DNA of 64,000 bases, taken from positions 13,174-77,173 of the forward strand of contig DITQ01000002.1 of the NCBI GenBank assembly GCA_002422165.1, given 5' to 3'. The DNA comes from Candidatus Pacebacteria bacterium UBA6180 (GTDB lineage: Bacteria; Patescibacteriota; Microgenomatia; UBA1400; PJMF01). A model generated the notes under the pieces. It ran no database searches. It was not told where the DNA came from and saw only the letters and a program-made list of their open reading frames with translations. Both the position numbers and the translations under genes were made by a program. Of the stretch, positions 2,201 to 15,860 are shown piece after piece (the stretch's first letter is position 1; every line of letters starts with the position of its first letter).

Positions 2201-3433
2201 TCAGATGCCGTTCGCGATCACTTCCCAGAGTTCACGCTCCTGATCTTCGTATCCTAGTGCCCAGATGGCGATTCCAGCTAGATCAAGCTGACGAGCGTAT
2301 TCCAATTTATAGGCGATAGATTGAGGGTTTTCATAATAGATTGTGTAAAGGTGGTCATCTTGCTGGTAAGTGATGTAGGGCGAGAGAGCATCTTCATCGA
2401 AACCTTGCCTGATCTGACTAACGCCAACCCAAGTGTTGTCTTCTGAAGTCCCGCCACGACTAAGATTGAGTAATTCTTTGGCTTTTTTATAGCTGACGGT
2501 GAAACCGCTGTTTTCGTAAGTGTTGGCACGGGCGGTGCTTGCGTCAGTTTGCCAACCGTATCCATAAAAAGGAATTCCGAGGAGGATTTTTTCGCGAGGC
2601 ACTTGATCGAGAAATAACTTGAGGTGAGCGTTGATGTCGCTGCCCCACTTCTGGTCTTCACTAAAAAGCGGCGCCACTGGTCCAGCTTGGCCACTGCTTC
2701 TCTGGTGGAAGTCGTAGGCCATCACTACGATGTAGTCGACGTATTTGGCAAGCTCTGGCAAGTCCCACAGGCCTTTATTGTCGCTGGAGGCACTAGCGTA
2801 GACATCGATGCTCAGAGTAGTGCTCTGGTATTTGTTATCCAAGTGTTGACGTAGTTTTCGCATTAACTCCGTCATTCCTTGTCGCAGTTCTGGGCTTTTT
2901 TCGCCGCTGTACTCGATGTCGATGTTAATGCCAGTAATTGGGTAAGCGAGCAGGACAGAGTCAAGGCTAGTTAGAAACTTCTCCATGGCAGGCTCGTTCG
3001 CCAGAAAAGTAGCGATGTCGCGGCTATTGAATTGTTTGAGAACTAGCTCGACTTGTGTATTTTGTTTTTTTGCCTCTTCTGCGAGTTCCAAGAAGGCTTC
3101 ACTGCTGAGGTGGCGATAGCCAGGTTCAAGGTTGCCGTCGCTACTTCTACTTAGCAGTTGGCCGTCGCTCCCGATGTCCAAGCCAAAAAAAGCCAGGTGA
3201 GTCAATTCTTTCTCTAAGCTAAAAGTGTTAATGTTCCAGTATGGTAGGAAGCCATAGACGACCTTAGCCTCTTTTTTAGGAATAATTAATTCTTTGAAGT
3301 ATCGCAAGCGCGAATTATGGCTGATGGCGGAAGAGAGTGGTGCTTCGTAGAAGAAGCTAATCGAGAGTAGTGCTGTCAAGATCAGAAGTAGAAATAAAAA
3401 AACGCTGAAGAAAAATTTAGACATATTTAGCAC
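2201..3433 (-). CDS. Glycoside hydrolase family 18-like protein (chitinase/peptidoglycan-hydrolase-like), membrane anchored
   Basis: N-terminal TM/signal segment; GH18 catalytic-type motif GINIDIEYSG (DxDxE) and YGYGWQ near the C-terminus; TIM-barrel-like length. Confidence 0.55.
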   Translation of the reverse strand: MLNMSKFFFSVFLFLLLILTALLSISFFYEAPLSSAISHNSRLRYFKELIIPKKEAKVVYGFLPYWNINTFSLEKELTHLAFFGLDIGSDGQLLSRSSDGNLEPGYRHLSSEAFLELAEEAKKQNTQVELVLKQFNSRDIATFLANEPAMEKFLTSLDSVLLAYPITGINIDIEYSGEKSPELRQGMTELMRKLRQHLDNKYQSTTLSIDVYASASSDNKGLWDLPELAKYVDYIVVMAYDFHQRSSGQAGPVAPLFSEDQKWGSDINAHLKLFLDQVPREKILLGIPFYGYGWQTDASTARANTYENSGFTVSYKKAKELLNLSRGGTSEDNTWVGVSQIRQGFDEDALSPYITYQQDDHLYTIYYENPQSIAYKLEYARQLDLAGIAIWALGYEDQERELWEVIANGI

Positions 3434-3438
3434 ACGCT

Positions 3439-5808
3439 TTAGTTACGGTTGCCGTAGTTCACCAAATTTGGCTCGTAAATTACTTTACCCTCTTCATCTT
3501 GAGGACGGTTGCAGTCAGCGCAGTAAAGCTTGGTTAGCGGATCGTAGTAGAAACTGTGCTCCTCAAGCTGTAGATCATCAGCTTCTTCACCTTCTTGAGG
3601 TGGTAAGCCGGTCGAAGCTCTGATCCAGTATTCTTTACGAAAAGTTCCAGAATAGCTAGGCAGTGAGGCTTCCCAGTAGAGTTCTTGGCGAGTGTCAGCG
3701 CAGCTTGCTGCCGGATCAGTTTCAGTGTTGAAAAAGTCAGTGGTATTGTCTCCATCGCCAATGACTAGCTTTCCCAAGCCCGCCTGCGCTGGCATGCCAG
3801 TTAGGCAAACGCTGGCGATTTTGACATCGCTTGGGCGCTCTGGCCAGACGGTTTCCTGGTCTTGGAGCACATAGCTCATTATGTCGTTCCAGATCGGCGC
3901 TGCTCCAGTGATGCCAGATGCTAGATAGCTCATCGAGGTGCTATCATTGTTGCCCACCCAAGTCATAGTTAAGAACTCAGGGGTGTATCCGATGGTCCAG
4001 TTATCGCGCAAATCATTGGTGGTGCCAGTTTTGGCCGAGACGATTTTATTTCGAATAACCAAGCTAGAATTGCTGCCAAAGGCTGCTTGGCGCGCGCTGT
4101 TATCTTGGAGGATGTGATTAGTGAGGTAGGCTGGCGCGCGCGCCATCACTCTCCGCAGCGAGCCGAGTTCGTTGATGGCTTCATCCTCGCTCATTGTAGC
4201 TAGGTTTTGAGTCGTGGCTTGACTGTCATAACTCTCGAGAACTTCGCCGCGGAAATTACTAATCTCCAAGATGCCAGTCAAAGGCACATGCACACCTTGG
4301 TTGGCAAGAACGCCAAAAGCCTCTGCCAATTCGACCATTCTGATCTCACCGCCTCCAAGGGTGAGGGAGAGACCGTAATTAGCTGGATTGGTCCAAGTAT
4401 TTATACCCATGGCCCGAGCTTGATTGATGAATTTCTCGACGCCAATTGTTGCCAAGGCTTTGACAGCGGGAATATTGAGCGAGTTGCCAAGCGACTGGCG
4501 AATAGTGACGGGACCAGAGAAGCCACCGGTGTAATTTTTCGGACAATAATCGCGTTGACCGGCGACGCGGAAACATGTAGGAATATCGAGTAAAATGGTT
4601 CCTGGATTGATGGTTTTTTCGGCCATAGCAGTGGCGTACATTATTGGTTTAATTGAAGAACCTGGTTGGCGTAGCGCCAGGGTGACATTGACCTGACCAT
4701 CGCTTTGGCTATCGAAGTAATCTTTGGAGCCAATCATGGCCAGAATTTCGCCGGTGTTAGGTTTGGTAACGAGAGCTGCACCATTACTAACCTTCAGTCG
4801 CTCCAAAGTTTTGAGTTCTGCTGCCAGTGAGGCTTGAGCGGTTTCCTGTAGGTCTAGGTCTAGAGTGGTGGTGACCCGTAAACCGCCAGTTTCGACCATT
4901 TCTTCGCCATATTTTTCGTAGAGTAAATCGCGGATGTAGAAGACGAAATGAGGGGCTCTGATGTCAGTGCGAGAAATGGCATATTCTAGTACTTCTGCTT
5001 CAGCGCGCTCGGCTGTGGCTTCATCAATATATTTATCTTCAACCATGCGGCGCAAAACTTCTTTTTGACGATTTTTAGCCCGTTCAGGATTAGAGCCAAA
5101 CGGTGAGTAAGTAGTGGGAGATTGTGGTAAGCCAGCCAGCAAAGCCGCTTCGGCTAGGTCAAGTTCGCTAGCGGACTTGGCGAAATATTTGTTGGCAGCG
5201 GCTTCGATGCCGACCGCAGTGCCTCCATAAGAAATGTAATTGAGGTACATTTCCAGAATTTCCTCTTTACTGTAAAGCACTTCTGTCATCACCGCCAAAA
5301 CTGCTTCTTTGATTTTGCGCTGGAGAGTTTTTTCCTTGCTGAGCAGGGCGTTTTTGACGAGTTGCTGAGTGATGGTTGAGCCGCCCTGGACTGTGTTCCC
5401 GCTGAAGTTTTTGAAACCAGCTCGCAGTAAACCGCGCAAGTCTAGGCCATGATGGCGGTAGAAACTTTTGTCTTCGATGGCAATGGTGGCTTGCAAAACG
5501 TGCTCTGGTAGATCGCCAATTTTGATGGGGATGCGGTTTTCTTGACCATAAATTTCGTAGAGTAATTGGCCATGGCGGTCAAAAATCTGCGTACTGACGG
5601 GAAAATTTTCAGTTGAAGTTAAATTGCTTGGAGAGGGTAATTGTTTGTAGAGGTAGATAATAAAAATGATCAAGCTTAGGCCAAGTAAACCTAGTCCAGT
5701 TTGGAGCGAGCGACTTCTGCGTAGTCTGGCCCAAAAAAATTTTCGACTGCGATTGCGAATTCGCCTTGATTTAAGTTGCTTTTTGGTGGCGAGACGAAAA
5801 GGGTTCAT
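3439..5808 (-). CDS. Class A penicillin-binding protein (PBP1A-type bifunctional transglycosylase/transpeptidase)
   Basis: Basic N-terminus + TM helix; GT51 motifs (EDKSFYRHHG, QGGSTITQQLVKN); transpeptidase SxxK-type region (GSSIKP), KTGT motif. Confidence 0.85.
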   Translation of the reverse strand: MNPFRLATKKQLKSRRIRNRSRKFFWARLRRSRSLQTGLGLLGLSLIIFIIYLYKQLPSPSNLTSTENFPVSTQIFDRHGQLLYEIYGQENRIPIKIGDLPEHVLQATIAIEDKSFYRHHGLDLRGLLRAGFKNFSGNTVQGGSTITQQLVKNALLSKEKTLQRKIKEAVLAVMTEVLYSKEEILEMYLNYISYGGTAVGIEAAANKYFAKSASELDLAEAALLAGLPQSPTTYSPFGSNPERAKNRQKEVLRRMVEDKYIDEATAERAEAEVLEYAISRTDIRAPHFVFYIRDLLYEKYGEEMVETGGLRVTTTLDLDLQETAQASLAAELKTLERLKVSNGAALVTKPNTGEILAMIGSKDYFDSQSDGQVNVTLALRQPGSSIKPIMYATAMAEKTINPGTILLDIPTCFRVAGQRDYCPKNYTGGFSGPVTIRQSLGNSLNIPAVKALATIGVEKFINQARAMGINTWTNPANYGLSLTLGGGEIRMVELAEAFGVLANQGVHVPLTGILEISNFRGEVLESYDSQATTQNLATMSEDEAINELGSLRRVMARAPAYLTNHILQDNSARQAAFGSNSSLVIRNKIVSAKTGTTNDLRDNWTIGYTPEFLTMTWVGNNDSTSMSYLASGITGAAPIWNDIMSYVLQDQETVWPERPSDVKIASVCLTGMPAQAGLGKLVIGDGDNTTDFFNTETDPAASCADTRQELYWEASLPSYSGTFRKEYWIRASTGLPPQEGEEADDLQLEEHSFYYDPLTKLYCADCNRPQDEEGKVIYEPNLVNYGNRN

Positions 5809-6011: not shown

Positions 6012-6040
6012 TTGCAAAAAGGCATGGTCTCTAATACAAT
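6012..6040 (+). promoter_or_regulatory. Sigma70-like promoter TTGCAA-17nt-TACAAT ending 6 nt before the ATG of the 6047 gene (predicts a leaderless transcript)
   Basis: TTGCAA at 6012-6017, 17-nt spacer, TACAAT at 6035-6040; ATG at 6047 with no Shine-Dalgarno. Confidence 0.4.
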
Positions 6041-6046
6041 CATTGC

Positions 6047-6532
6047 ATGGAACTTCAAAAAGACTCTCCCTGGTACCAATATTTAGACGACTGCCAGAGG
6101 GCTCTGGCTGAGACTAGTTTTGCCCTTTTGGACAAGGCCAAAGAGCTTCATGATCTCAAAGACTATTCTTTTATTGTTTTTCCCATGGCTAAAGCCTACG
6201 AAGGTTTTCTCAAAAAAGTATTATTTGATCGAAACCTAATTGACAAAAATACCTATGAAGGGCGAAAATTTCGCATCGGTCGTGCTCTCAATCCAGATGT
6301 TCGCAATCACCAGCGCGATGAGGACTGGTTTTATGATGATATGGCTGAGATTTTTGGAAATGAGGTCGCTCGAGAGATGTGGAATGCTTGGCTAATGTGC
6401 CGCAACCACGTTTTTCACTATTGGCCAGATTGCGAGCAGTTTTTGACGATTGCTGAAGTTAAAGAGCGTTTACAAATGATGACTGAGGTGATGAATAAAA
6501 TTACTAATGAAAAGGAAGACTATGTCAGCTAA
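6047..6532 (+). CDS. Hypothetical protein with HEPN-like RNxxxH motif at the start of the C-terminal helix (candidate HEPN RNase fold)
   Basis: 161 aa, predicted all-alpha; motif CRNHVFHYW (R-N-x-x-x-H) near C-terminus as in HEPN/KEN RNase domains; 3' end overlaps next gene by 11 nt taking the 6522 start (26 nt to the upstream 6507 ATG) (translational coupling). Confidence 0.4.
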   Translation: MELQKDSPWYQYLDDCQRALAETSFALLDKAKELHDLKDYSFIVFPMAKAYEGFLKKVLFDRNLIDKNTYEGRKFRIGRALNPDVRNHQRDEDWFYDDMAEIFGNEVAREMWNAWLMCRNHVFHYWPDCEQFLTIAEVKERLQMMTEVMNKITNEKEDYVS

Positions 6533-7145
6533 ATATAAATACCAAAATATCACTATTTCCGGTTTGCCAGGCTGTGGCTCGACGACTTTACTTAGTTTGC
6601 TCAAAGAAGAGTTGGAGCCAGATGGTTGGGTGGGTTTCTCTGGTGGCGAATTTATGCGCTCTTACGCTATCGAGAAAGGTTTGTTTAACCCTAGCCAATC
6701 AACCCATCATTTGGCGACGGCTTATGACGATGATTTTGATCGTCAAGTGGATTATGGAATGCGAGAAAAAGTCTCGACTTCTGATAAATGGATTTTAGAA
6801 TCTTGGCTATCTGGCTTCATGACTCAGAATGTCCCTGGGACACTGCGAGTACTCATGGTTTGTAGTGACGATGCGGTTCGCATCGATCGTATTGTTAATC
6901 GCGATGAGGTGGACGTAACCGATGCCAAGAAAAGTATCCACGAACGCTATGAGGCTAATCTAGCCAAGTGGCGCCGCATGTACGCCAAAGAGTGGCAGGA
7001 ATGGGTGGTGCAGACCGGCAAGTTGCCAAAGGAAGCAGAGATTGATTTTTGGGCTTCAGAGCTCTACGATTTAGTTATTGATACTTATTCTCATAATAAA
7101 GAAAAAACTTTAGAACTAGTCTTGAATGCCATCAAAAAAACTTAA
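6522..7145 (+). CDS. Cytidylate-kinase-like protein, archaeal/type-2 family (Cytidylate_kin2/AAA_17-like), with atypical Walker A (GLPGCGSTT: lysine replaced by serine)
   Basis: ITISGLPGCGSTTLL P-loop-like segment; KWILESWLSGFM matches the type-2 CMP kinase (I/V)LE(G/S)RL(A/S)GW motif; C-terminal R/K-rich lid-like region. Start chosen at MSAKYK (GGAAG 5 nt upstream); the ORF track offers an earlier ATG at 6507. Confidence 0.55.
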   Translation: MSAKYKYQNITISGLPGCGSTTLLSLLKEELEPDGWVGFSGGEFMRSYAIEKGLFNPSQSTHHLATAYDDDFDRQVDYGMREKVSTSDKWILESWLSGFMTQNVPGTLRVLMVCSDDAVRIDRIVNRDEVDVTDAKKSIHERYEANLAKWRRMYAKEWQEWVVQTGKLPKEAEIDFWASELYDLVIDTYSHNKEKTLELVLNAIKKT

Positions 7146-7785
7146 ATCTGAGTCAAGCCGTGCTTTTTTACCTCTCTTGAGTCTGACCTTTTTGTTGTGG
7201 TTGTTTTATCGTAGTGTTTTTCATTTTCCAGTTTGGTTTGATGAAACCGTTGGCAAATTAGTTTTTTTTGCCTTGCCAGTTCTGCTTTATGTGACTATTA
7301 CTGGCAATAGGAAAATTTTCGCGACTTTTAGCTTAACCAAACTCAAGCCCGGATTGTTGCTCGGTCTTGCCATCGGTGGTCTTTTTGGTTTTGCGGGGGT
7401 GTCTTTAGGAGTTCTTAGTCGAGGTGGAGCGCTAACTTTGGCACCTTACTATATGGCGAATTGGTTTTGGTGGGAATTATTTTTGGCACTTTTGACAGGT
7501 TTTTGGGAAACCTTGTTTTTTTATAGTTTTGTGATGGTAGCGGTTGATGAGCGTTTTGCTCATTTCTCTCTTTTTCAGAGAGTGCTCTTGGTGGCTAGCG
7601 TCTTTCTTCTTTTTCATTTGCCCAATATTTTTGCTCGTTTTGACTTATCTCAAGTTATATTCCAAATTCTTCTTTTGTTTGCTTTTGCCTGTGGTCAGGC
7701 ATTAATTTTTCACCAGAGGCGCAATGCTTACGTTTTGGTTTTAGTGCAAGCGATTTGGGGGATGGTTTTACTGGTGAATTTTTAG
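7126..7785 (+). CDS. CPBP-family (CAAX/Abi-type) intramembrane metalloprotease-like protein
   Basis: Polytopic membrane protein; CPBP motif 2 FLLFH (FxxxH) and motif 3 HQRRN (HxxxN) present; motif 1 partly degenerate (WETLFFY instead of EExxxR). Overlaps upstream gene by 20 nt. Confidence 0.5.
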   Translation: MPSKKLKSESSRAFLPLLSLTFLLWLFYRSVFHFPVWFDETVGKLVFFALPVLLYVTITGNRKIFATFSLTKLKPGLLLGLAIGGLFGFAGVSLGVLSRGGALTLAPYYMANWFWWELFLALLTGFWETLFFYSFVMVAVDERFAHFSLFQRVLLVASVFLLFHLPNIFARFDLSQVIFQILLLFAFACGQALIFHQRRNAYVLVLVQAIWGMVLLVNF

Positions 7786-7800
7786 AAGTTTGCGCTCTCT

Positions 7801-8370
7801 ATGCAAAAGTTCAACTACATTTTTTTTATCTTGGCCTCTTTACTGGCAGTTGCAGTTTTATTAATCTCTCTACAATCAGCCAACAGTCAACGCTCTTTGG
7901 GCAATGGTCAGAGTAAACTGCTAGTTGGCAAAATTTACGTAGCTCGAGAAATTTTACCAGATCACACTTTATATCCAGTCTTGATGATGATCGATCGCCT
8001 GAGACTGGAACTAGCAGCGCCAGAGAAACGCAGCTCTTTAATGCTTGCTTATGGCAAAAGACGTTTGTTTTATAGTGCTCGTTTGTTAGAAAATGGTCAA
8101 CGCGAACTATCTTTTATTACTTTGAGTAAGGCGATTAAGTATTACCAACAAGCTTTGACAGTTAGCATTGGAAGTTTCAACGAGCGACTTTTAAGTTACC
8201 GGCTCAATCAAGAGCTAGCCTTCATGGTTTTGGAAGCTTTACCAGAATTGCAGACTTTTATTGTTGAGCACAAAAACGAATATAGTGATAGTGAACGCGT
8301 ACTTTTGGATTTACTTGTCGAGCAGACCGAAATTTTGGCACTTGATCTACAAATCGTTCTCTATAAATAG
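7801..8370 (+). CDS. Hypothetical membrane-anchored protein (single N-terminal TM helix)
   Basis: 189 aa ORF 15 nt after the CPBP gene; N-terminal hydrophobic helix IFFILASLLAVAVLLISL; no known motifs. Confidence 0.4.
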   Translation: MQKFNYIFFILASLLAVAVLLISLQSANSQRSLGNGQSKLLVGKIYVAREILPDHTLYPVLMMIDRLRLELAAPEKRSSLMLAYGKRRLFYSARLLENGQRELSFITLSKAIKYYQQALTVSIGSFNERLLSYRLNQELAFMVLEALPELQTFIVEHKNEYSDSERVLLDLLVEQTEILALDLQIVLYK

Positions 8371-8386
8371 ATCTACTTTGTCATAG

Positions 8387-8416
8387 TTGACAGCTACCCG
8401 TTCCCCGTGAGATATT
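8387..8416 (+). promoter_or_regulatory. Candidate nrdR promoter (TTGACA, 18-nt spacer, TGaGATATT extended -10-like)
   Basis: TTGACA at 8387-8392; TG at 8408-8409 and GATATT at 8411-8416. Weak -10. Confidence 0.3.
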
Positions 8417-8436
8417 TTTAGTCCTCGTCTTTTCAA

Positions 8437-8452
8437 GCACAATATTTTGTGC
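8437..8452. promoter_or_regulatory. NrdR box 1 (GCACAATATTTTGTGC)
   Basis: 16-bp palindrome matching the NrdR-box consensus acaCwAtATaTwGtgt; 56 nt upstream of nrdR ATG. Confidence 0.55.
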
Positions 8453-8468
8453 CAAAAGACGAGGGAAA

Positions 8469-8484
8469 ACACTACAGGTAGTAT
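8469..8484. promoter_or_regulatory. NrdR box 2 (ACACTACAGGTAGTAT)
   Basis: Quasi-palindrome; centre is 32 bp from box 1 centre, the spacing expected for tandem NrdR boxes. Confidence 0.45.
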
Positions 8485-8507
8485 TAGCTCGTTATAAGGT
8501 AATTTTT

Positions 8508-8960
8508 ATGCAGTGCCCCTTTTGTAAAGGCAGCGAAACGGCAGTAATCGACTCACGAGGCAGCGAAAATGGTGACAGCGTTAGACGTCGCCGCACTTGC
8601 GAAGCGTGTCAGAAGCGCTTCACCACATACGAGCGAGTTGAGGGAGTAGACCTCAAGGTCATTAAAAAAGACGGTCAACAAGAAAACTTCGATCGCGACA
8701 AGATCAAGCGTGGCCTGATCAAGGCGACTTGGAAACGTCCCGTTAGCATGCTTCAAATTGAGCTACTGATTGAGGATGTTGAAGCTAAGTTGCGTCAGCG
8801 AGAGGTTTTCGAAGTCAAGAGCTGGGAAATTGGCAACCTAGTTCTCAACCGTCTCAAGAAACTTGACCCTTTGTCCTACTTGCTCTTTGCCAGCGTCTAC
8901 CGTGACTTCGGTGAGCTGGCGGATTTTGAGGAAGAGATTAAAAAGTTGAAAACTAATTAA
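8508..8960 (+). CDS. nrdR: Transcriptional repressor NrdR (zinc ribbon + ATP-cone)
   Basis: MQCPFCKGSETAVIDSRGSENGDSVRRRRTCEACQKRFTTYERVE: canonical NrdR N-terminus with CxxC..CxxC zinc ribbon; 150 aa. Confidence 0.9.
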   Translation: MQCPFCKGSETAVIDSRGSENGDSVRRRRTCEACQKRFTTYERVEGVDLKVIKKDGQQENFDRDKIKRGLIKATWKRPVSMLQIELLIEDVEAKLRQREVFEVKSWEIGNLVLNRLKKLDPLSYLLFASVYRDFGELADFEEEIKKLKTN

Positions 8961-9003
8961 AGAGTTAGTTTTCACCAAATATATTTAGAAAAGGAAAATT
9001 ATT

Positions 9004-11196
9004 ATGATCACTGCGAAAGTTGCCGCTAACCAGCTGCCCAAGAAAAAAATGAAATTCATCGATCGAAAATTGACCAAGGGTTTGGGTGAAGCGGTGGCTA
9101 AGCGCACAATTTTGCGCACTAAGGCCAATGGCCATTTAGAAACTTGGGCGGATGTGGCGCACCGCGTGGCTTTAGGCAACTCGTCTCTCTTGCCGGACAA
9201 ATTCAAAAAAGATCGCCAAACTGAATATGAGCTGCTGCGCAAACACATCTCCAACGCTTCACTGCTAATGAGCGGTCGCCATCTCCAGCATGGTGACGAG
9301 ACTCAGCCAGGTCGCAACATGGAGGTTTTTACTAACTGTAGCACCGCCTCTTCGTCATTTTTACTCTTTTACTTGCTACTCAATGGTTCAGGCGTCGGTC
9401 GAGCTTATGATGATGCTCTGATGGTCGTTGATTGGGACCGAATGCCGATCGTTCGTTGTGTGCTTAGTGACACTCATCCAGATTTCGTCTGGGGAGATGA
9501 TGAGAGCACCAGAGAAGCTCGCCACAAGTACAATAATGCCCACTGGTTCGAGATTCCCGACACTCGCGAGGGTTGGGCACAGGCGGTCGAAAAGATCGAG
9601 GTCATGGCCTACGAGCGTAAGTTCAAGGATGACACGCTCATTTTGGATTTCAGCAAAGTGCGCCCCAAAGGTTCACCGATCGCTGGCATGCAGGACAGAC
9701 CAGCTTCTGGACCAAGGCCACTGATCAAGGCGATTCAGAAACTTGCTACCATCAAAGGTTCTGGCATGCGCCCTTGGAAACAAGCGCTTTATGCTGATCA
9801 CTATTTATCCGAATGTGTGTTGGTTGGAGGTGCTCGTCGCGCTGCCCGCATTGCAGTTAAAGTTTGGACTGATCCAGATATTTTTGACTTCATTAGTATT
9901 AAGAAAGGCGGCTTCCTCTGGTCAGCTAACAACAGCGTGGCTGTCGATGAGAAGTTTTGGAAACAACGCAGTCAGCATTCAATCAAAGTTCTAGATGCGG
10001 TGATGCGTGCTTCCTACTTCGATAAAACTGGCGAACCAGGGTTCGTCAATCAGCATAAGTTGGTCCAAAATGATGATGGATTTGACGGTTACTTGGATGG
10101 TGGCTATGCTCGCAGCAAGAAATTTATTCCCATGAAGAAGACAGTCAAGATGCTAGCTGAGGTCGCCCGTCATGCAGGGGCGAAGTACTACACCCAAATT
10201 CCAAACCCTTGTGGTGAGATCACTCTCAACATGCTTGGTGGTTACTGCGTGATTGCCGATGTGGTGCCTTACCATGCTCCAGATGTTGAAGCGGCTGAAG
10301 AATCTTTCCGAGTGGCCACTCGCGCTTTGATGAGAGTTAACACCTATATGGATAGTTTGTATTCTCGCGAAGTCAAACGCACCAACCGCATTGGTGTCGG
10401 CATGACGGGGATTCACGAATATGCTTGGAACGCTTTTGGTTTAGCTTTCCGTGATTTAATCAACGAAGACAAGGCCAAGGACTTTTGGATGACCATTGCT
10501 CGTTTCAAGCGGGCAGTAGAAGATGAGTCGATTAGTTATGCTAAGAAATTAGGCGTCAACGTGCCACACACCAATACCACTATCAAGCCAGCCGGCACTA
10601 CTTCCAAGCTTTTTAGCTTGTCAGAGGGAGCTCATTTGCCAGCTATGCGCGAATATATTCGCTGGGTTCAGTTCAGCACTGATGATCCGCTAGTCAAAAA
10701 ATATCAGAAGATGGGCTATCCCAACAAACAGCTCAAAAGCTACCAAGGGACGACAGTGATCGGCTTTCCCACCCAGCCAGAGATTTGTAGTCTGGGCATG
10801 AATAGTCACCTGGTGACGGCTAGCGAAGCCACTCCCGAAGAACAGTACAAATGGCTGATGTTGATCGAAAAGTACTGGATCGTCGGTGTCGATGAAGATG
10901 GCAAGCCGCTAAGCGAAGACAAAGGTAACCAGGTGTCTTACACTCTCAAGTATGATCCGGACAAAGTTTCGTACCGCAAGTTCTCTAGTATGATTCGCAA
11001 ATATCAACCGCTGATCAAAACTTGCTCAGTCATGCCGCGCATCGACGTCACAGCTTACGAGTATCAGCCTGAGGAGGCAGTTACTATAGGTCAGTTCATG
11101 CAGGTCATCAAAGAAATCACCGATGACGAGCTAGAAGTGACTGAGGACATTAACTTGGAGCAGCTGAAGTGTGACACAGGGGCTTGCCCGATATAG
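9004..11196 (+). CDS. nrdJ: Class II (adenosylcobalamin-dependent) ribonucleotide reductase, monomeric RTPR-like
   Basis: Active-site thiyl-radical motif NPCGEITL followed by GGYCVIAD (class I/II C..E..L......C pattern); C-terminal redox pair KCDTGACPI; no glycyl-radical motif; 730 aa with no separate beta subunit; immediately downstream of nrdR with AGGA-type RBS. Confidence 0.65.
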   Translation: MITAKVAANQLPKKKMKFIDRKLTKGLGEAVAKRTILRTKANGHLETWADVAHRVALGNSSLLPDKFKKDRQTEYELLRKHISNASLLMSGRHLQHGDETQPGRNMEVFTNCSTASSSFLLFYLLLNGSGVGRAYDDALMVVDWDRMPIVRCVLSDTHPDFVWGDDESTREARHKYNNAHWFEIPDTREGWAQAVEKIEVMAYERKFKDDTLILDFSKVRPKGSPIAGMQDRPASGPRPLIKAIQKLATIKGSGMRPWKQALYADHYLSECVLVGGARRAARIAVKVWTDPDIFDFISIKKGGFLWSANNSVAVDEKFWKQRSQHSIKVLDAVMRASYFDKTGEPGFVNQHKLVQNDDGFDGYLDGGYARSKKFIPMKKTVKMLAEVARHAGAKYYTQIPNPCGEITLNMLGGYCVIADVVPYHAPDVEAAEESFRVATRALMRVNTYMDSLYSREVKRTNRIGVGMTGIHEYAWNAFGLAFRDLINEDKAKDFWMTIARFKRAVEDESISYAKKLGVNVPHTNTTIKPAGTTSKLFSLSEGAHLPAMREYIRWVQFSTDDPLVKKYQKMGYPNKQLKSYQGTTVIGFPTQPEICSLGMNSHLVTASEATPEEQYKWLMLIEKYWIVGVDEDGKPLSEDKGNQVSYTLKYDPDKVSYRKFSSMIRKYQPLIKTCSVMPRIDVTAYEYQPEEAVTIGQFMQVIKEITDDELEVTEDINLEQLKCDTGACPI

Positions 11197-11606: not shown

Positions 11607-14063
11607 ATGGCAGTCAAGAAAAATTCTTCTAGTCCCAAAAAAATTCGAGGCAAACTGCAAAAAAATGTTTTGGTCGCTACCAAAGTTACTAAAGAAGCGC
11701 CAAAATTTAAGCGCGGTCGGCCCAAGTTGCCACTAAGAATTAGATTGGCTCGCAGCTTCAAAAAAAAATTAACTAAGCTTCATAAAAAATCCAAAAAAAC
11801 ACAAAAAAAATGGCTAGAGCAATATTTTATTCTCTTGCGAGTGTTGCAGATTAAGAGAGGGCGAGGTCGACCGACTTTGCCAGCTACAACTAAACTGAAG
11901 CGTTTTTTTTCTGCCGTCAGCAGTAGCGTCAGCAAAAGCAAACAAAAATTTAACCGTCGCCGATTGTCAGCGGCGCTGTTTCTGCAACGTTTCTTCCGCT
12001 TGCGCAGGAAAGTTGGCCGGCCCAAGAAAAAAGGTTCGTGGTTACCTTTGGCAAGCTCCTTACTTTTCACCATTTTATTTTTGGCTTTTGCTTATTTGGT
12101 TTACGATGTTGGCATCAAAGATCTACCACAAGCCACTGATTTGTCTAGCAAGGCCCAAAACGTCACCACTCGCATTTTGGACCGCAATGGCAAACTTTTG
12201 TTTCGCATCTATGAAGACGAAAATCGCACCCTCATTCCGCTAGCTGAGGTTTCCACCTACCTGCGGGATGCGACCGTCGCCATCGAAGACCAAAATTTTT
12301 ATAAACACCACGGCTTTTCCTTGCGGGGGATTTTTCGCGCTGCCTGGAAGAATTTCTCTAACCAAACTGTTCAGGGCGGCTCAACCATCACTCAGCAGTT
12401 AGTCAAAAATCGCTTACTTAACAATGAAAAAACCTACCGTCGCAAATTACGCGAGTTGCTCCTATCGCTTCTAGTGGAGCGTATTTACACAAAAGAGCAA
12501 ATTTTGGAAATGTACCTTAACACCGTCGCTTACGGTGGTTCGACTTACGGTATCGAAGAAACATCTTGGCGTTATTTCAATAAATCAGCCAGCGATCTGA
12601 GCCTAGCAGAAGCAGCCTTAATTGCTGGCTTGCCACAAGCGCCCTCGACCTACACGCCTTTTGGTGCTAATCCAGAATTAGCTTACGCACGTCAGGCAGA
12701 AGTTCTGCGCCGCATGGTGGAAGATGGCTATATCAGTCAGCTCCAGGCTGATCAAGCCAAGCAAGAGAAGTTGATTTTCAACCAAGATCGCATCGACATC
12801 CAAGCTCCCCACTTCGTCATGTACGTGCGCAAAATTTTAGCTGAGCGCTACGGTGAAGATGTCCTCGCTAAGGGCGGCCTGGAAGTGCGGACCACTCTGG
12901 ACCTAGATTTGCAAAACTTGGCTCAGGAAATTGTCAGTACTGAAATCGCCAAGCTTGCTAACTTCAAAATCACTAATGGTGCAGCCTTGGTAACCAATCC
13001 TAAAACGGGAGAAATTCTTGCCATGGTCGGTGGAGCCAATTATTTCGATTTTGCCCATGATGGTCAGGTTAACGTTACCACTCGACCACGCCAACCAGGT
13101 TCGTCAATCAAGCCGTTGACTTACGCTTTGGCTCTAGAGCGGGGCAAAACAACTGCTTCAGTTATTGACGATTCGCCAGTGGTTTACCAGATTGCTGGCA
13201 GCAAACCCTATGCTCCAGTGAATTATGATGGGCGTTTCCGTGGATCCGTGACTTTGCGTGAGGCTTTGGCTTCATCCTACAATATTCCCGCGGTCAAACT
13301 GCTCGCCGAACTGGGAGTTAACGATCTTATCGATCAAGGTGAAGCAATGGGTATTACCACTTGGCAAGATCGGCGCCGCTTCGGTTTATCCCTGACTCTA
13401 GGTGGCGGCGAGGTTTTGATGACTGACATGGCCAAGCTTTACAGCACTTTTGCCAATTTAGGCTATCCAGTCGGCGTCAATCCTTTTTTGGAAGTAACTA
13501 ATTACAAAGGGGAAGTGCTTTATCGCAATCACTGTGCTCTCGATCAAACTAATTGTTACGAGGAGCCAGCACTCAGTCCAAAGACTGCTTATCTAATCAC
13601 TGATATCCTAGCTGACAATCGCGCCCGCACGCCGGCTTTTGGGGCTTTTTCTGTCCTTAATATTCCAGGGCAAGAGGTAGCGGTCAAAACTGGCACTACT
13701 AACAGTATGAAAGACAATTGGACGATTGGTTACACTACTAACCGTTTGGTTGCTACTTGGGTTGGAAATAACGATAACACGCCGATGAGTTACGTTGCTT
13801 CTGGTATTACTGGTGCTTCTCCAATTTGGAACAAAATTATGCTATCCATGTTAGACGCTGATAACCCACACCTGTTTACGGTGCCAGCCAACATGATTAA
13901 GGTTAAGATCTGTGCCACAACGGGGACCTTGCCTTGCAGTGATTGTCCAAGTGTGGTCGAAGAATTGTTTGTAGAGGGGACAGAGCCGACTAAGGCTTGC
14001 AGTGAGGTTAATTTTGTGCCCCTCCCTGATACGGCCGAACCAAGGAGAGGGCAAGTTTTGTAG
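11607..14063 (+). CDS. Class A penicillin-binding protein (PBP1A-type) with ~150-aa lysine/arginine-rich cytoplasmic N-terminal tail carrying three AT-hook-like GRP motifs
   Basis: GT51 motifs (EDQNFYKHHG, QGGSTITQQLVKN), transpeptidase motifs (GSSIKP, KTGT); N-terminal tail contains KRGRPKLP, KRGRGRPTLP, KVGRPKKKG before the TM helix. Confidence 0.85.
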   Translation: MAVKKNSSSPKKIRGKLQKNVLVATKVTKEAPKFKRGRPKLPLRIRLARSFKKKLTKLHKKSKKTQKKWLEQYFILLRVLQIKRGRGRPTLPATTKLKRFFSAVSSSVSKSKQKFNRRRLSAALFLQRFFRLRRKVGRPKKKGSWLPLASSLLFTILFLAFAYLVYDVGIKDLPQATDLSSKAQNVTTRILDRNGKLLFRIYEDENRTLIPLAEVSTYLRDATVAIEDQNFYKHHGFSLRGIFRAAWKNFSNQTVQGGSTITQQLVKNRLLNNEKTYRRKLRELLLSLLVERIYTKEQILEMYLNTVAYGGSTYGIEETSWRYFNKSASDLSLAEAALIAGLPQAPSTYTPFGANPELAYARQAEVLRRMVEDGYISQLQADQAKQEKLIFNQDRIDIQAPHFVMYVRKILAERYGEDVLAKGGLEVRTTLDLDLQNLAQEIVSTEIAKLANFKITNGAALVTNPKTGEILAMVGGANYFDFAHDGQVNVTTRPRQPGSSIKPLTYALALERGKTTASVIDDSPVVYQIAGSKPYAPVNYDGRFRGSVTLREALASSYNIPAVKLLAELGVNDLIDQGEAMGITTWQDRRRFGLSLTLGGGEVLMTDMAKLYSTFANLGYPVGVNPFLEVTNYKGEVLYRNHCALDQTNCYEEPALSPKTAYLITDILADNRARTPAFGAFSVLNIPGQEVAVKTGTTNSMKDNWTIGYTTNRLVATWVGNNDNTPMSYVASGITGASPIWNKIMLSMLDADNPHLFTVPANMIKVKICATTGTLPCSDCPSVVEELFVEGTEPTKACSEVNFVPLPDTAEPRRGQVL

Positions 14064-15167: not shown

Positions 15168-15860
15168 CTAGTGAACTTTTTTGACTTTGGCCGCGATTAG
15201 CTCCACTACTTCTTCAATGTCTAAGTTGCTGGTGTCAAGCACCCAAGCATCCTTAGCAACGTGCAAGGGATCAGCGTCGCGCTTGGTGTCGCGCTCGTCG
15301 CGTTCTTTGATCTCAGCGATGACCTCTTCCAAGCTGATGTCGACACCTTTGCCCAAATACTGGGCGTGTCTTCGCTCTGCGCGGCTCTCCACACTAGCAG
15401 TTAGGAAAATCTTGATTTGTGCCTCAGGAAGGACGCGAAAAGTGATGTCGCGGCCCTCCATGACTACATTTTGACTGGCCGCGATTTTTTGCTGTTTCTG
15501 CACAAGCACTCGGCGCAGTTTGGGTAGCACGGCGACTTTGGAAGCGCCTTCGCTGCACTTTTGGGTGCGGATGGCCCAGGAGACATCCTCTCCGTCGAGA
15601 ATAACTGTGGTTAAGCGGCCATCAGTTTCCTTAGGAGGTTTTGGATTACGCATTTGTAGCTCGCTTTTTTCAAGTAGGGCGACGACCTGATCTTCATCAC
15701 CCAGTTTAACTTTGGCGCGAATGGCCAAAAGGGCTGTGGCGCGATACATGGCGCCAGTGTCGACGTAAAGAAAACCCAATTTCTGTGCCAAGAGGCGAGA
15801 AACAGTGCCTTTGCCAGCGGCTACAGGGCCATCGATGGCAATTTGAAAAGATTGGTGCAT
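15168..15860 (-). CDS. cmk: Cytidylate kinase (bacterial type)
   Basis: IAIDGPVAAGKGTVSRLLAQKLGFLYVDTGAMYRA: canonical Cmk N-terminus and P-loop. Confidence 0.85.
   Translation of the reverse strand: MHQSFQIAIDGPVAAGKGTVSRLLAQKLGFLYVDTGAMYRATALLAIRAKVKLGDEDQVVALLEKSELQMRNPKPPKETDGRLTTVILDGEDVSWAIRTQKCSEGASKVAVLPKLRRVLVQKQQKIAASQNVVMEGRDITFRVLPEAQIKIFLTASVESRAERRHAQYLGKGVDISLEEVIAEIKERDERDTKRDADPLHVAKDAWVLDTSNLDIEEVVELIAAKVKKVH

Follow-up and report, generated by a model that had tools for sequence, protein, structure and literature searches.

The stretch of DNA analysed here (64,000 nucleotides from contig DITQ01000002.1 of Candidatus Pacebacteria bacterium UBA6180, hereafter the window) carries four consecutive genes on its forward strand that raise the question of what a HEPN domain protein does in the company of a kinase-like protein and two membrane proteins: does it belong to a toxin or defence module, as the original prediction from this sequence had proposed, or does it serve the cell in another way? 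Gene 1 (6047-6532) codes for a soluble protein of 161 amino acids (aa) that consists of a solo HEPN domain of the RNase LS (RnlA/LsoA) type; gene 2 (6522-7145) for a P-loop protein of the cytidylate-kinase fold, 207 aa long when counted from 6522; gene 3 (7126-7785) for a multi-pass membrane protein of the CPBP (Rce1-like) family with degenerate catalytic motifs; and gene 4 (7801-8370), which closes the four-gene unit, for a DUF5667 protein with one N-terminal transmembrane (TM) helix. The coordinates of these open reading frames (ORFs) confirm both the genes and their overlaps as they had first been placed. With moderate confidence, we favour the view that they form a chromosomal, membrane-associated HEPN endoribonuclease module that is linked to the envelope and is neither a mobile toxin nor a phage-defence system.

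The identity of the gene 1 product is central to this view. Its HEPN-like character had been proposed from an RNxxxH arrangement, and this is borne out by comparisons that place it with RnlA and LsoA, the RNase LS toxins of Escherichia coli, which are the only sequence-profile match to the gene 1 family in Pfam and the Protein Data Bank (PDB). In Pfam, gene 1 itself matches only HEPN_RnaseLS (PF18869) and RnlA-toxin_DBD (PF19034), both below threshold (21.1 bits where the cutoff is 29, and 21.5 where it is 27); within the family of 34, these two models, and no other, are matched by 33 and 31 members (E < 0.01), and scores reach 27.8 bits in a few distant relatives. A single-sequence phmmer search of the PDB with gene 1 gave no match; a profile of the family recovered LsoA as the single matching sequence, with both catalytic blocks aligned (AKAYEGF with LsoA ALRAIEGF, and WLxCRNxVFH with LsoA WHENRHGLFH). 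The AlphaFold model of the protein is all-helical, in keeping with the all-alpha HEPN fold, with a predicted local distance difference test (pLDDT) score of 92.4 and a predicted template modelling (pTM) score of 0.88.

In RnlA, residues R255, E258, R318 and H323 are each needed for RNase activity and toxicity (PMC8266594). Their counterparts in gene 1 are K49 and E52 of the AKAYEGFLK block (residues 48-56; 6188..6214 on the + strand) and R119 and H124 of the Rx4H motif R119-N-H-V-F-H124 (6401..6418, + strand), and the spacing of the (R/K)xxE ... Rx4H arrangement is identical in the two proteins. Among 34 diverse homologues, K49, Y51, E52, G53 and F54 of the first block are invariant, as are R119, N120, F123 and H124 of the second. 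Conservation of the arginine and histidine in orthologues had been set beforehand as a test of the HEPN reading: the [CS]RNxxxH motif is kept in 119/120 homologues, and so is the AKAYEGF block. The protein does not, as had been stated, end with CRNHVFHYW; about 35 residues follow, including a helix at 135-154. Taken together, these comparisons solidly argue for gene 1 encoding a stand-alone RnlA/LsoA-type HEPN domain with all four catalytic positions kept, and, as judged from sequence, its family is a divergent subfamily of the RNase LS HEPNs. Unlike RnlA and LsoA, it is a solo domain of about 160 aa without the two N-terminal TATA-binding protein (TBP)-like domains, and it has lysine for arginine at the first catalytic position and an additional, invariant FRIGRxLNPD block.

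The family is narrow, with 204 representatives among 1.84 billion proteins, and is found in at least 494 species-representative genomes, the hosts being apparently all Patescibacteria of the Pacebacteria, Woesebacteria, Amesbacteria or Cerribacteria kind. Gene order was counted over the evaluable loci among the 80 best matches of these at least 494. The most persistent neighbour of the HEPN gene is a PBP1a-type class A penicillin-binding protein (PBP) gene, which is divergent from it and adjacent upstream in 70/73 loci; in the window it occupies 3439..5808 on the - strand, and its orthologues show the Transgly and Transpeptidase Pfam domains. The kinase-like gene lies directly 3' of the HEPN gene in 73/77 loci and the CPBP-like gene comes next in 67/71, so that the trio behaves in relatives as the conserved unit that had been looked for; an NrdR gene is present within 4 kb in 62/68 loci. 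The kinase-like and CPBP-like genes overlap in 34 of the 45 loci where this could be measured. The cluster is thus a single-locus, vertically inherited feature of Microgenomates-type Patescibacteria. Many of the metagenome-assembled genome (MAG) records that carry such Patescibacteria-type loci (L016, L018-L022, L042, L059, L075 and others) are titled 'uncultured Pseudomonadales', 'Vitreimonas sp.', 'Limisphaerales' or 'candidate division TM6', and look like mislabelled submissions.

The link of the HEPN domain to the membrane is seen most directly in proteins where the two are joined. In two clusters at 50% identity, P0140 and P0154, the proteins are HEPN::CPBP fusions whose CPBP domains have the canonical EExxxR, FxxxH and HxxxN/S motifs, whereas the separate CPBP-like genes are always degenerate. 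At the fusion loci (L089 and L090/L091) the gene is still divergent from PBP1a, and no kinase gene adjoins it. In the more distant relatives P0217, P0236 and P0248 the same HEPN domain stands behind multi-TM N-termini. These CPBP fusions and multi-TM relatives show a recurrent connection of the HEPN domain with the membrane and with CPBP; the searchable literature yielded no paper linking HEPN with CPBP or CAAX proteases. The kinase-like gene and the degenerate CPBP-like gene, on the other side, behave as one sub-unit, since they overlap, the MPS(K) start of the latter is conserved, and both are missing together in L087, which retains the HEPN, DUF5667 and NrdR genes. As judged at the locus, the HEPN gene can persist without the kinase-like gene: no kinase gene adjoins it in L087 or at the fusion loci, nor in L066 and L075, where an intact HEPN gene stands beside PBP1a with no kinase gene nearby.

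Several further proteins were observed at or around these exceptional loci. In the related L066 and L075, a convergent gene for a giant repeat protein of 1,200-1,960 aa (L066:6710-10330 and L075:6502-12381, - strand) lies 3' of the HEPN gene, where the kinase, CPBP and DUF5667 genes would be. Between the HEPN and kinase-like genes, L059 holds a gene (6548-10231) for a 1,227-aa protein with the YkuD-type L,D-transpeptidase signature GSHGCVNLP, a further cell-wall enzyme at the locus, and L004 holds an unannotated ORF (6524-7234) for a 236-aa protein with an N-terminal hydrophobic region, which overlaps the end of the HEPN gene and was seen in one lineage. Both L090 (5859-5996) and L091 (2615-2752) have a called ORF of 45 aa that separates PBP1a from the HEPN::CPBP fusion gene. 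Finally, in P0253 (595 aa) a HEPN-like domain is placed between a DUF3378 domain (RNase HIII N-terminal, TBP-like) and an RNase HII catalytic domain; a 'two-headed' architecture of HEPN and RNase H-type nuclease has been described before in the RNase LS family (PMC3710099).

Gene 2 had been described as a paralogue of cytidylate kinase (Cmk) in which the Walker A lysine is replaced, a description that holds across the family: its P-loop reads GLPGCGSTT (6561..6587, + strand), with serine in place of the lysine, and serine or threonine occupies that position in 120/120 orthologues. The fold is that of the Cmk-like P-loop nucleoside monophosphate (NMP) kinases, shared with the archaeal (d)CMP kinases (TIGR02173), Cytidylate_kin2 (PF13189) and the Methanococcus adenylate kinases. 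The TIGR02173 model matches gene 2 with an E value of 8e-19 and 68.2 bits, short of its equivalog cutoff of 102.1, and the canonical Walker A pattern GxxGxGK[ST] is absent. An LID-like RxDRxxNR, the SGGEFMR of the NMP site and E93 are conserved in the orthologues. The nearest structures are uncharacterised 'putative kinases' (3HDT, 3FDI). A profile of gene 2 found nothing significant in the PDB; with the search extended to E values up to 10, Methanococcus adenylate kinases emerged as the best sequence matches, and three of these (1KHT, 6PJW and 1KI9) have the same type of loop, GVPGVG(S/G)TT, that of the Methanococcus voltae enzyme being nearly identical to the G-x-P-G-x-G-S-T-T of gene 2. The lysine-less methanococcal adenylate kinases are reportedly active. 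Because Methanococcus adenylate kinases in the PDB carry the same P-loop (G-x-P-G-x-G-S/G-T-T), the missing lysine is, on these alignments, a trait of the clade and no proof of inactivity, and the 'dead' Walker A, or pseudo-kinase, of the original prediction does not follow from it.

The same window encodes a canonical bacterial-type Cmk at 15168-15860 on the - strand (TIGR00017, 245.8 bits against a cutoff of 135.55), and gene 2 is therefore an extra paralogue and not the housekeeping Cmk. The canonical enzyme is about 44% identical to the Cmk proteins of E. coli and Bacillus subtilis, and the genome has two very different proteins of this fold encoded within 9 kb. Unlike the archaeal (d)CMP kinases, gene 2 thus combines a sub-cutoff score with co-residence with a canonical Cmk and translational coupling to a membrane protein.

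That membrane protein, the product of gene 3, had been assigned to the CPBP family. The gene in the window gives no match in Pfam, and its profile finds nothing significant in the PDB; the assignment is upheld by the orthologues (45-60% identity), many of which match PF02517 and bear the NCBI name 'CPBP protease', and by alignment to the fused canonical CPBP domains. The protein has about seven hydrophobic segments, and the MPS(K) N-terminus is nearly invariant among its orthologues. With the CPBP/Rce1-like intramembrane glutamic proteases (PF02517), a family in which non-catalytic members also occur, it has in common the multi-pass TM layout and motif 2 (FxxxH), which is intact as F-L-L-F-H (7603..7617, + strand), with H164 invariant and FxxFHxP present in 112/120 orthologues. 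Unlike those proteases, it does not hold the full catalytic set EExxxR, FxxxH and HxxxN/D. At motif 1, W-E-T-L-F-F-Y (7504..7524, + strand) stands for E-E-x-x-x-R (EETLFRG or EEVVFRG in the fused domains), and the form [WF]ExxxF[FY], without one glutamate and the arginine, is found in 120/120 orthologues. At motif 3, Q-A-I-W-G (7747..7761, + strand) stands for HxxxN (WHFLWN or MHLFWS in canonical domains), with histidine changed to glutamine and asparagine to glycine; QAxWG is found in 67/120 orthologues and HAxWG in 47/120, the asparagine being absent in 114/120 and the histidine in the window's clade. Motif 2 as intact and motif 1 as degenerate had therefore been called correctly, while motif 3, also taken to be intact, reads QAIWG; HQRRN as a candidate for motif 3 was ruled out, its histidine being non-conserved and not aligned to the canonical motif. 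As motifs 1 and 3 have lost key residues, protease activity of gene 3 is doubtful, and a non-proteolytic or altered role is likely. The small membrane protein noted after gene 3 is confirmed as gene 4, which matches PF18915 (28.3 bits against a cutoff of 27) and has its TM segment at residues 6-24; a literature search on DUF5667 found no paper that mentions the domain.

Genes 1-4 are probably transcribed as a single messenger, which would be leaderless in the window's clade. A consensus scan confirmed the previously noted sigma-70-like promoter TTGCAA-17-TACAAT at 6012..6040 (+ strand), with the end of its -10 box 6 nucleotides (nt) 5' of the ATG at 6047. By itself such a scan is weak evidence, with 10 sites in the region where shuffled sequences gave 5.7 +/- 2.4. 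Across the window's clade (L001, L003, L010-L018), a TATAAT box is fixed 6-7 nt 5' of the gene 1 ATG and the DNA around it has diverged; in more distant clades the boxes lie 20-36 nt upstream. A leaderless gene 1 mRNA is predicted from the position of the -10 box and, because that position is kept while the upstream DNA has diverged, the prediction has good comparative support in the window's clade. The overlap of gene 2 with gene 1 amounts to 11 nt from the 6522 start or 26 nt from an upstream ATG at 6507; aligned orthologue N-termini and an AAGGAAG just 5' of it identify 6522, as far as sequence can tell, as the true start. This overlap, present as originally described, is confined to this genome; in relatives the two genes are separated by a median of about 72 nt. 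Genes 2 and 3 overlap by 20 nt.

The far boundary of the unit is marked by a promoter-like TTGACA-18-GATATT (8387-8416, + strand; promoter scan) ahead of nrdR and the ribonucleotide reductase (RNR) gene, followed by an NrdR box, CACAATATTTTGTG (8438-8451, + strand), which is the sole match within the 64-kb window and also occurs 5' of nrdR in 65/74 related loci. With a promoter-like site and an NrdR box of its own, nrdR-RNR is a unit apart from genes 1-4. The box is embedded in a hairpin with an 11-bp stem, 5' of nrdR and the class II RNR gene (region 8387-8466). The conserved block also holds a GH18 glycosyl hydrolase gene upstream (2201-3433, - strand) and a second class A PBP gene downstream of RNR (11607-14063, + strand), and cell-wall genes are frequent in the region around it.

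In the reading that we favour, the gene 1 product would most likely be a metal-independent endoribonuclease, active as a HEPN dimer, that works at the membrane with a CPBP-family protein. In most lineages this partner would be the separate 7-TM CPBP-like protein with its decayed protease motifs 1 and 3, itself translationally coupled to the lysine-less P-loop protein resembling cytidylate and adenylate kinases; in at least two lineages, HEPN would instead work as a fusion with a canonical CPBP protease, with no kinase gene adjoining. The kinase-like protein may then assist the membrane partner as an accessory subunit for nucleotide binding or phosphotransfer and not be an obligatory antidote, and genes 1-4 would make up a housekeeping or regulatory RNase module.

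A number of points weigh against this reading. Gene 1 stays below the Pfam gathering thresholds (about 21 against 27-29 bits), a Foldseek search of the PDB with its model gave nothing significant, and lysine takes the place of arginine at the position of RnlA R255. The HEPN gene diverges faster than the kinase-like gene, with a median identity of 49% against 63%. The HEPN::CPBP fusions come from two 50%-identity clusters only, and, with the 80 loci being the best matches of at least 494, arrangements that depart from the common order are under-represented. Synteny extends over the entire region from PBP1a to RNR, so that in small genomes adjacency alone cannot tell a functional link from inherited order. 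Moreover, RNase activity, dimerisation, association of the proteins, localisation of the HEPN protein at the membrane and a role in the envelope are steps that we infer.

The alternative that survives best, possible but doubtful, draws on the synteny of the region: the genes would have no joint function and would be unrelated housekeeping genes kept adjacent by inheritance in a compact genome, with gene 1 acting in RNA processing, gene 2 as a working kinase for the deoxynucleotide pathway of NrdR and RNR, and genes 3 and 4 in the envelope. Synteny indeed reaches beyond the cluster, from PBP1a and GH18 to RNR and the second PBP, and overlapping genes are common in small genomes. In gene 2, some 1.4 kb 5' of nrdR, the arginines of the LID, the SGGEFMR of the NMP site and E93 are kept, together with a P-loop of the Methanococcus adenylate kinase type. 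However, the HEPN::CPBP fusion proteins link genes 1 and 3 directly, and genes 2 and 3 are held together by their overlap and MPS(K) start in 34/45 loci and by their joint loss in L087. Gene 2 as the sole Cmk of the genome, feeding RNR, was rejected on account of the canonical cmk 8 kb away and of the promoter-like site and NrdR box that nrdR has to itself.

The module first proposed, in which a HEPN RNase toxin is restrained by a kinase-like pseudo-enzyme and CPBP is an immunity or abortive-infection part, is improbable. It has in its favour that the characterised RnlA/LsoA-type HEPNs are anti-phage toxins, that the genes are tightly packed and overlapping in this genome, that the Walker A lysine is missing in all kinase-like orthologues and that the HEPN protein has changed more quickly than those encoded beside it. 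Yet the lysine-less P-loop is also that of the Methanococcus adenylate kinases, and the overlap of genes 1 and 2 is not conserved. Neither the patchy mobile distribution and variable islands of defence systems nor a match to known defence models was found: PADLOC gave no match for genes 1, 3 and 4, and its pVip-kinase match for gene 2 was rejected as generic nucleotide-kinase homology. Searches of phage, plasmid and IMG/VR collections recovered no relatives, which is weak evidence, as these collections hold few Patescibacteria elements. Unlike the mobile anti-phage toxin-antitoxin (TA) systems of RnlA and LsoA, gene 1 is chromosomal and inherited vertically throughout its lineage, and the locus has no gene for an RnlB/Dmd-type antitoxin, the neighbours being PBP1a and the kinase-fold gene. 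Nor, judged at the locus, does the kinase-like protein seem to fit the part of a neutralising partner, given the intact HEPN genes without an adjacent kinase gene in L066, L075 and L087 and the kinase-less CPBP fusions. In at least 494 species genomes the cluster is a vertically inherited block at a single locus, with PBP1a on one side and NrdR-RNR on the other; this fixed place, the single copy and the housekeeping character of the flanking genes argue against a mobile TA or defence cassette.

A comparison with Ire1 and RNase L leads to a distinctly improbable, if more explicit, picture. These proteins have the same list of parts as the cluster, namely a membrane part (Ire1 is membrane-anchored), a nucleotide-binding kinase-like part and a HEPN RNase. 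By analogy, the CPBP-derived membrane protein beside PBP1a would sense the envelope, the lysine-less P-loop subunit attached to it would read the nucleotide state, and dimerisation of HEPN would thereby be controlled; once activated, the RnlA-type HEPN RNase would reshape the transcriptome, and the HEPN::CPBP fusions would be the ancestral one-piece version. Unlike in Ire1 and RNase L, each part is a polypeptide of its own, the fold of gene 2 is that of P-loop NMP kinases and not of protein kinases, the HEPN domain of gene 1 is of the RNase LS and not the KEN type, and an adjacent kinase-like gene is dispensable for retention of the HEPN gene in several lineages.

The eukaryotic Las1-Grc3, which acts on the internal transcribed spacer 2 (ITS2) of pre-rRNA, likewise pairs a HEPN nuclease with a P-loop kinase-fold protein in a core and not a conflict function, as is possibly the case here, and is an established HEPN-kinase machine (PMC10942766). 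A pair of this kind, in which HEPN would cut precursor RNA (e.g., rRNA spacers or insertions) to leave a 5'-OH that the P-loop protein phosphorylates, would suit the position of the HEPN gene beside a P-loop kinase-fold gene in 73/77 loci and the core-like conservation of genes 1 and 2, but is very improbable, as gene 2 has the Cmk-like NMP-kinase fold without the Walker A lysine and is coupled to a membrane protein gene and not to the HEPN gene, whereas Grc3 belongs to the Clp1 family of polynucleotide kinases and has a canonical Walker A, and several lineages have the HEPN gene with no kinase gene adjacent.

To return to the membrane-associated, envelope-linked RNase module that we favour, its significance lies in the contrast with what is known of its relatives. 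The characterised bacterial HEPNs of the RnlA/LsoA type are mobile anti-phage toxins; here, a small gene of this type is inherited vertically in hundreds of species of Patescibacteria, and it is wired to the gene for a cell-wall synthase and to a CPBP membrane protein, sometimes by fusion. The kinase-like clade adds the lesson that loss of the Walker A lysine is no proof of a dead enzyme. The four proteins are small and easy to express, which makes the hypotheses directly testable. Should the analogy with Ire1 be true, it would amount to a core, non-defence use of a HEPN RNase across a whole bacterial lineage. If the gene 1 product is active as an RNase, a HEPN enzyme would have been domesticated for a core role in organisms about whose RNA metabolism very little has been learned, and CPBP-family proteins would have a new kind of partner.

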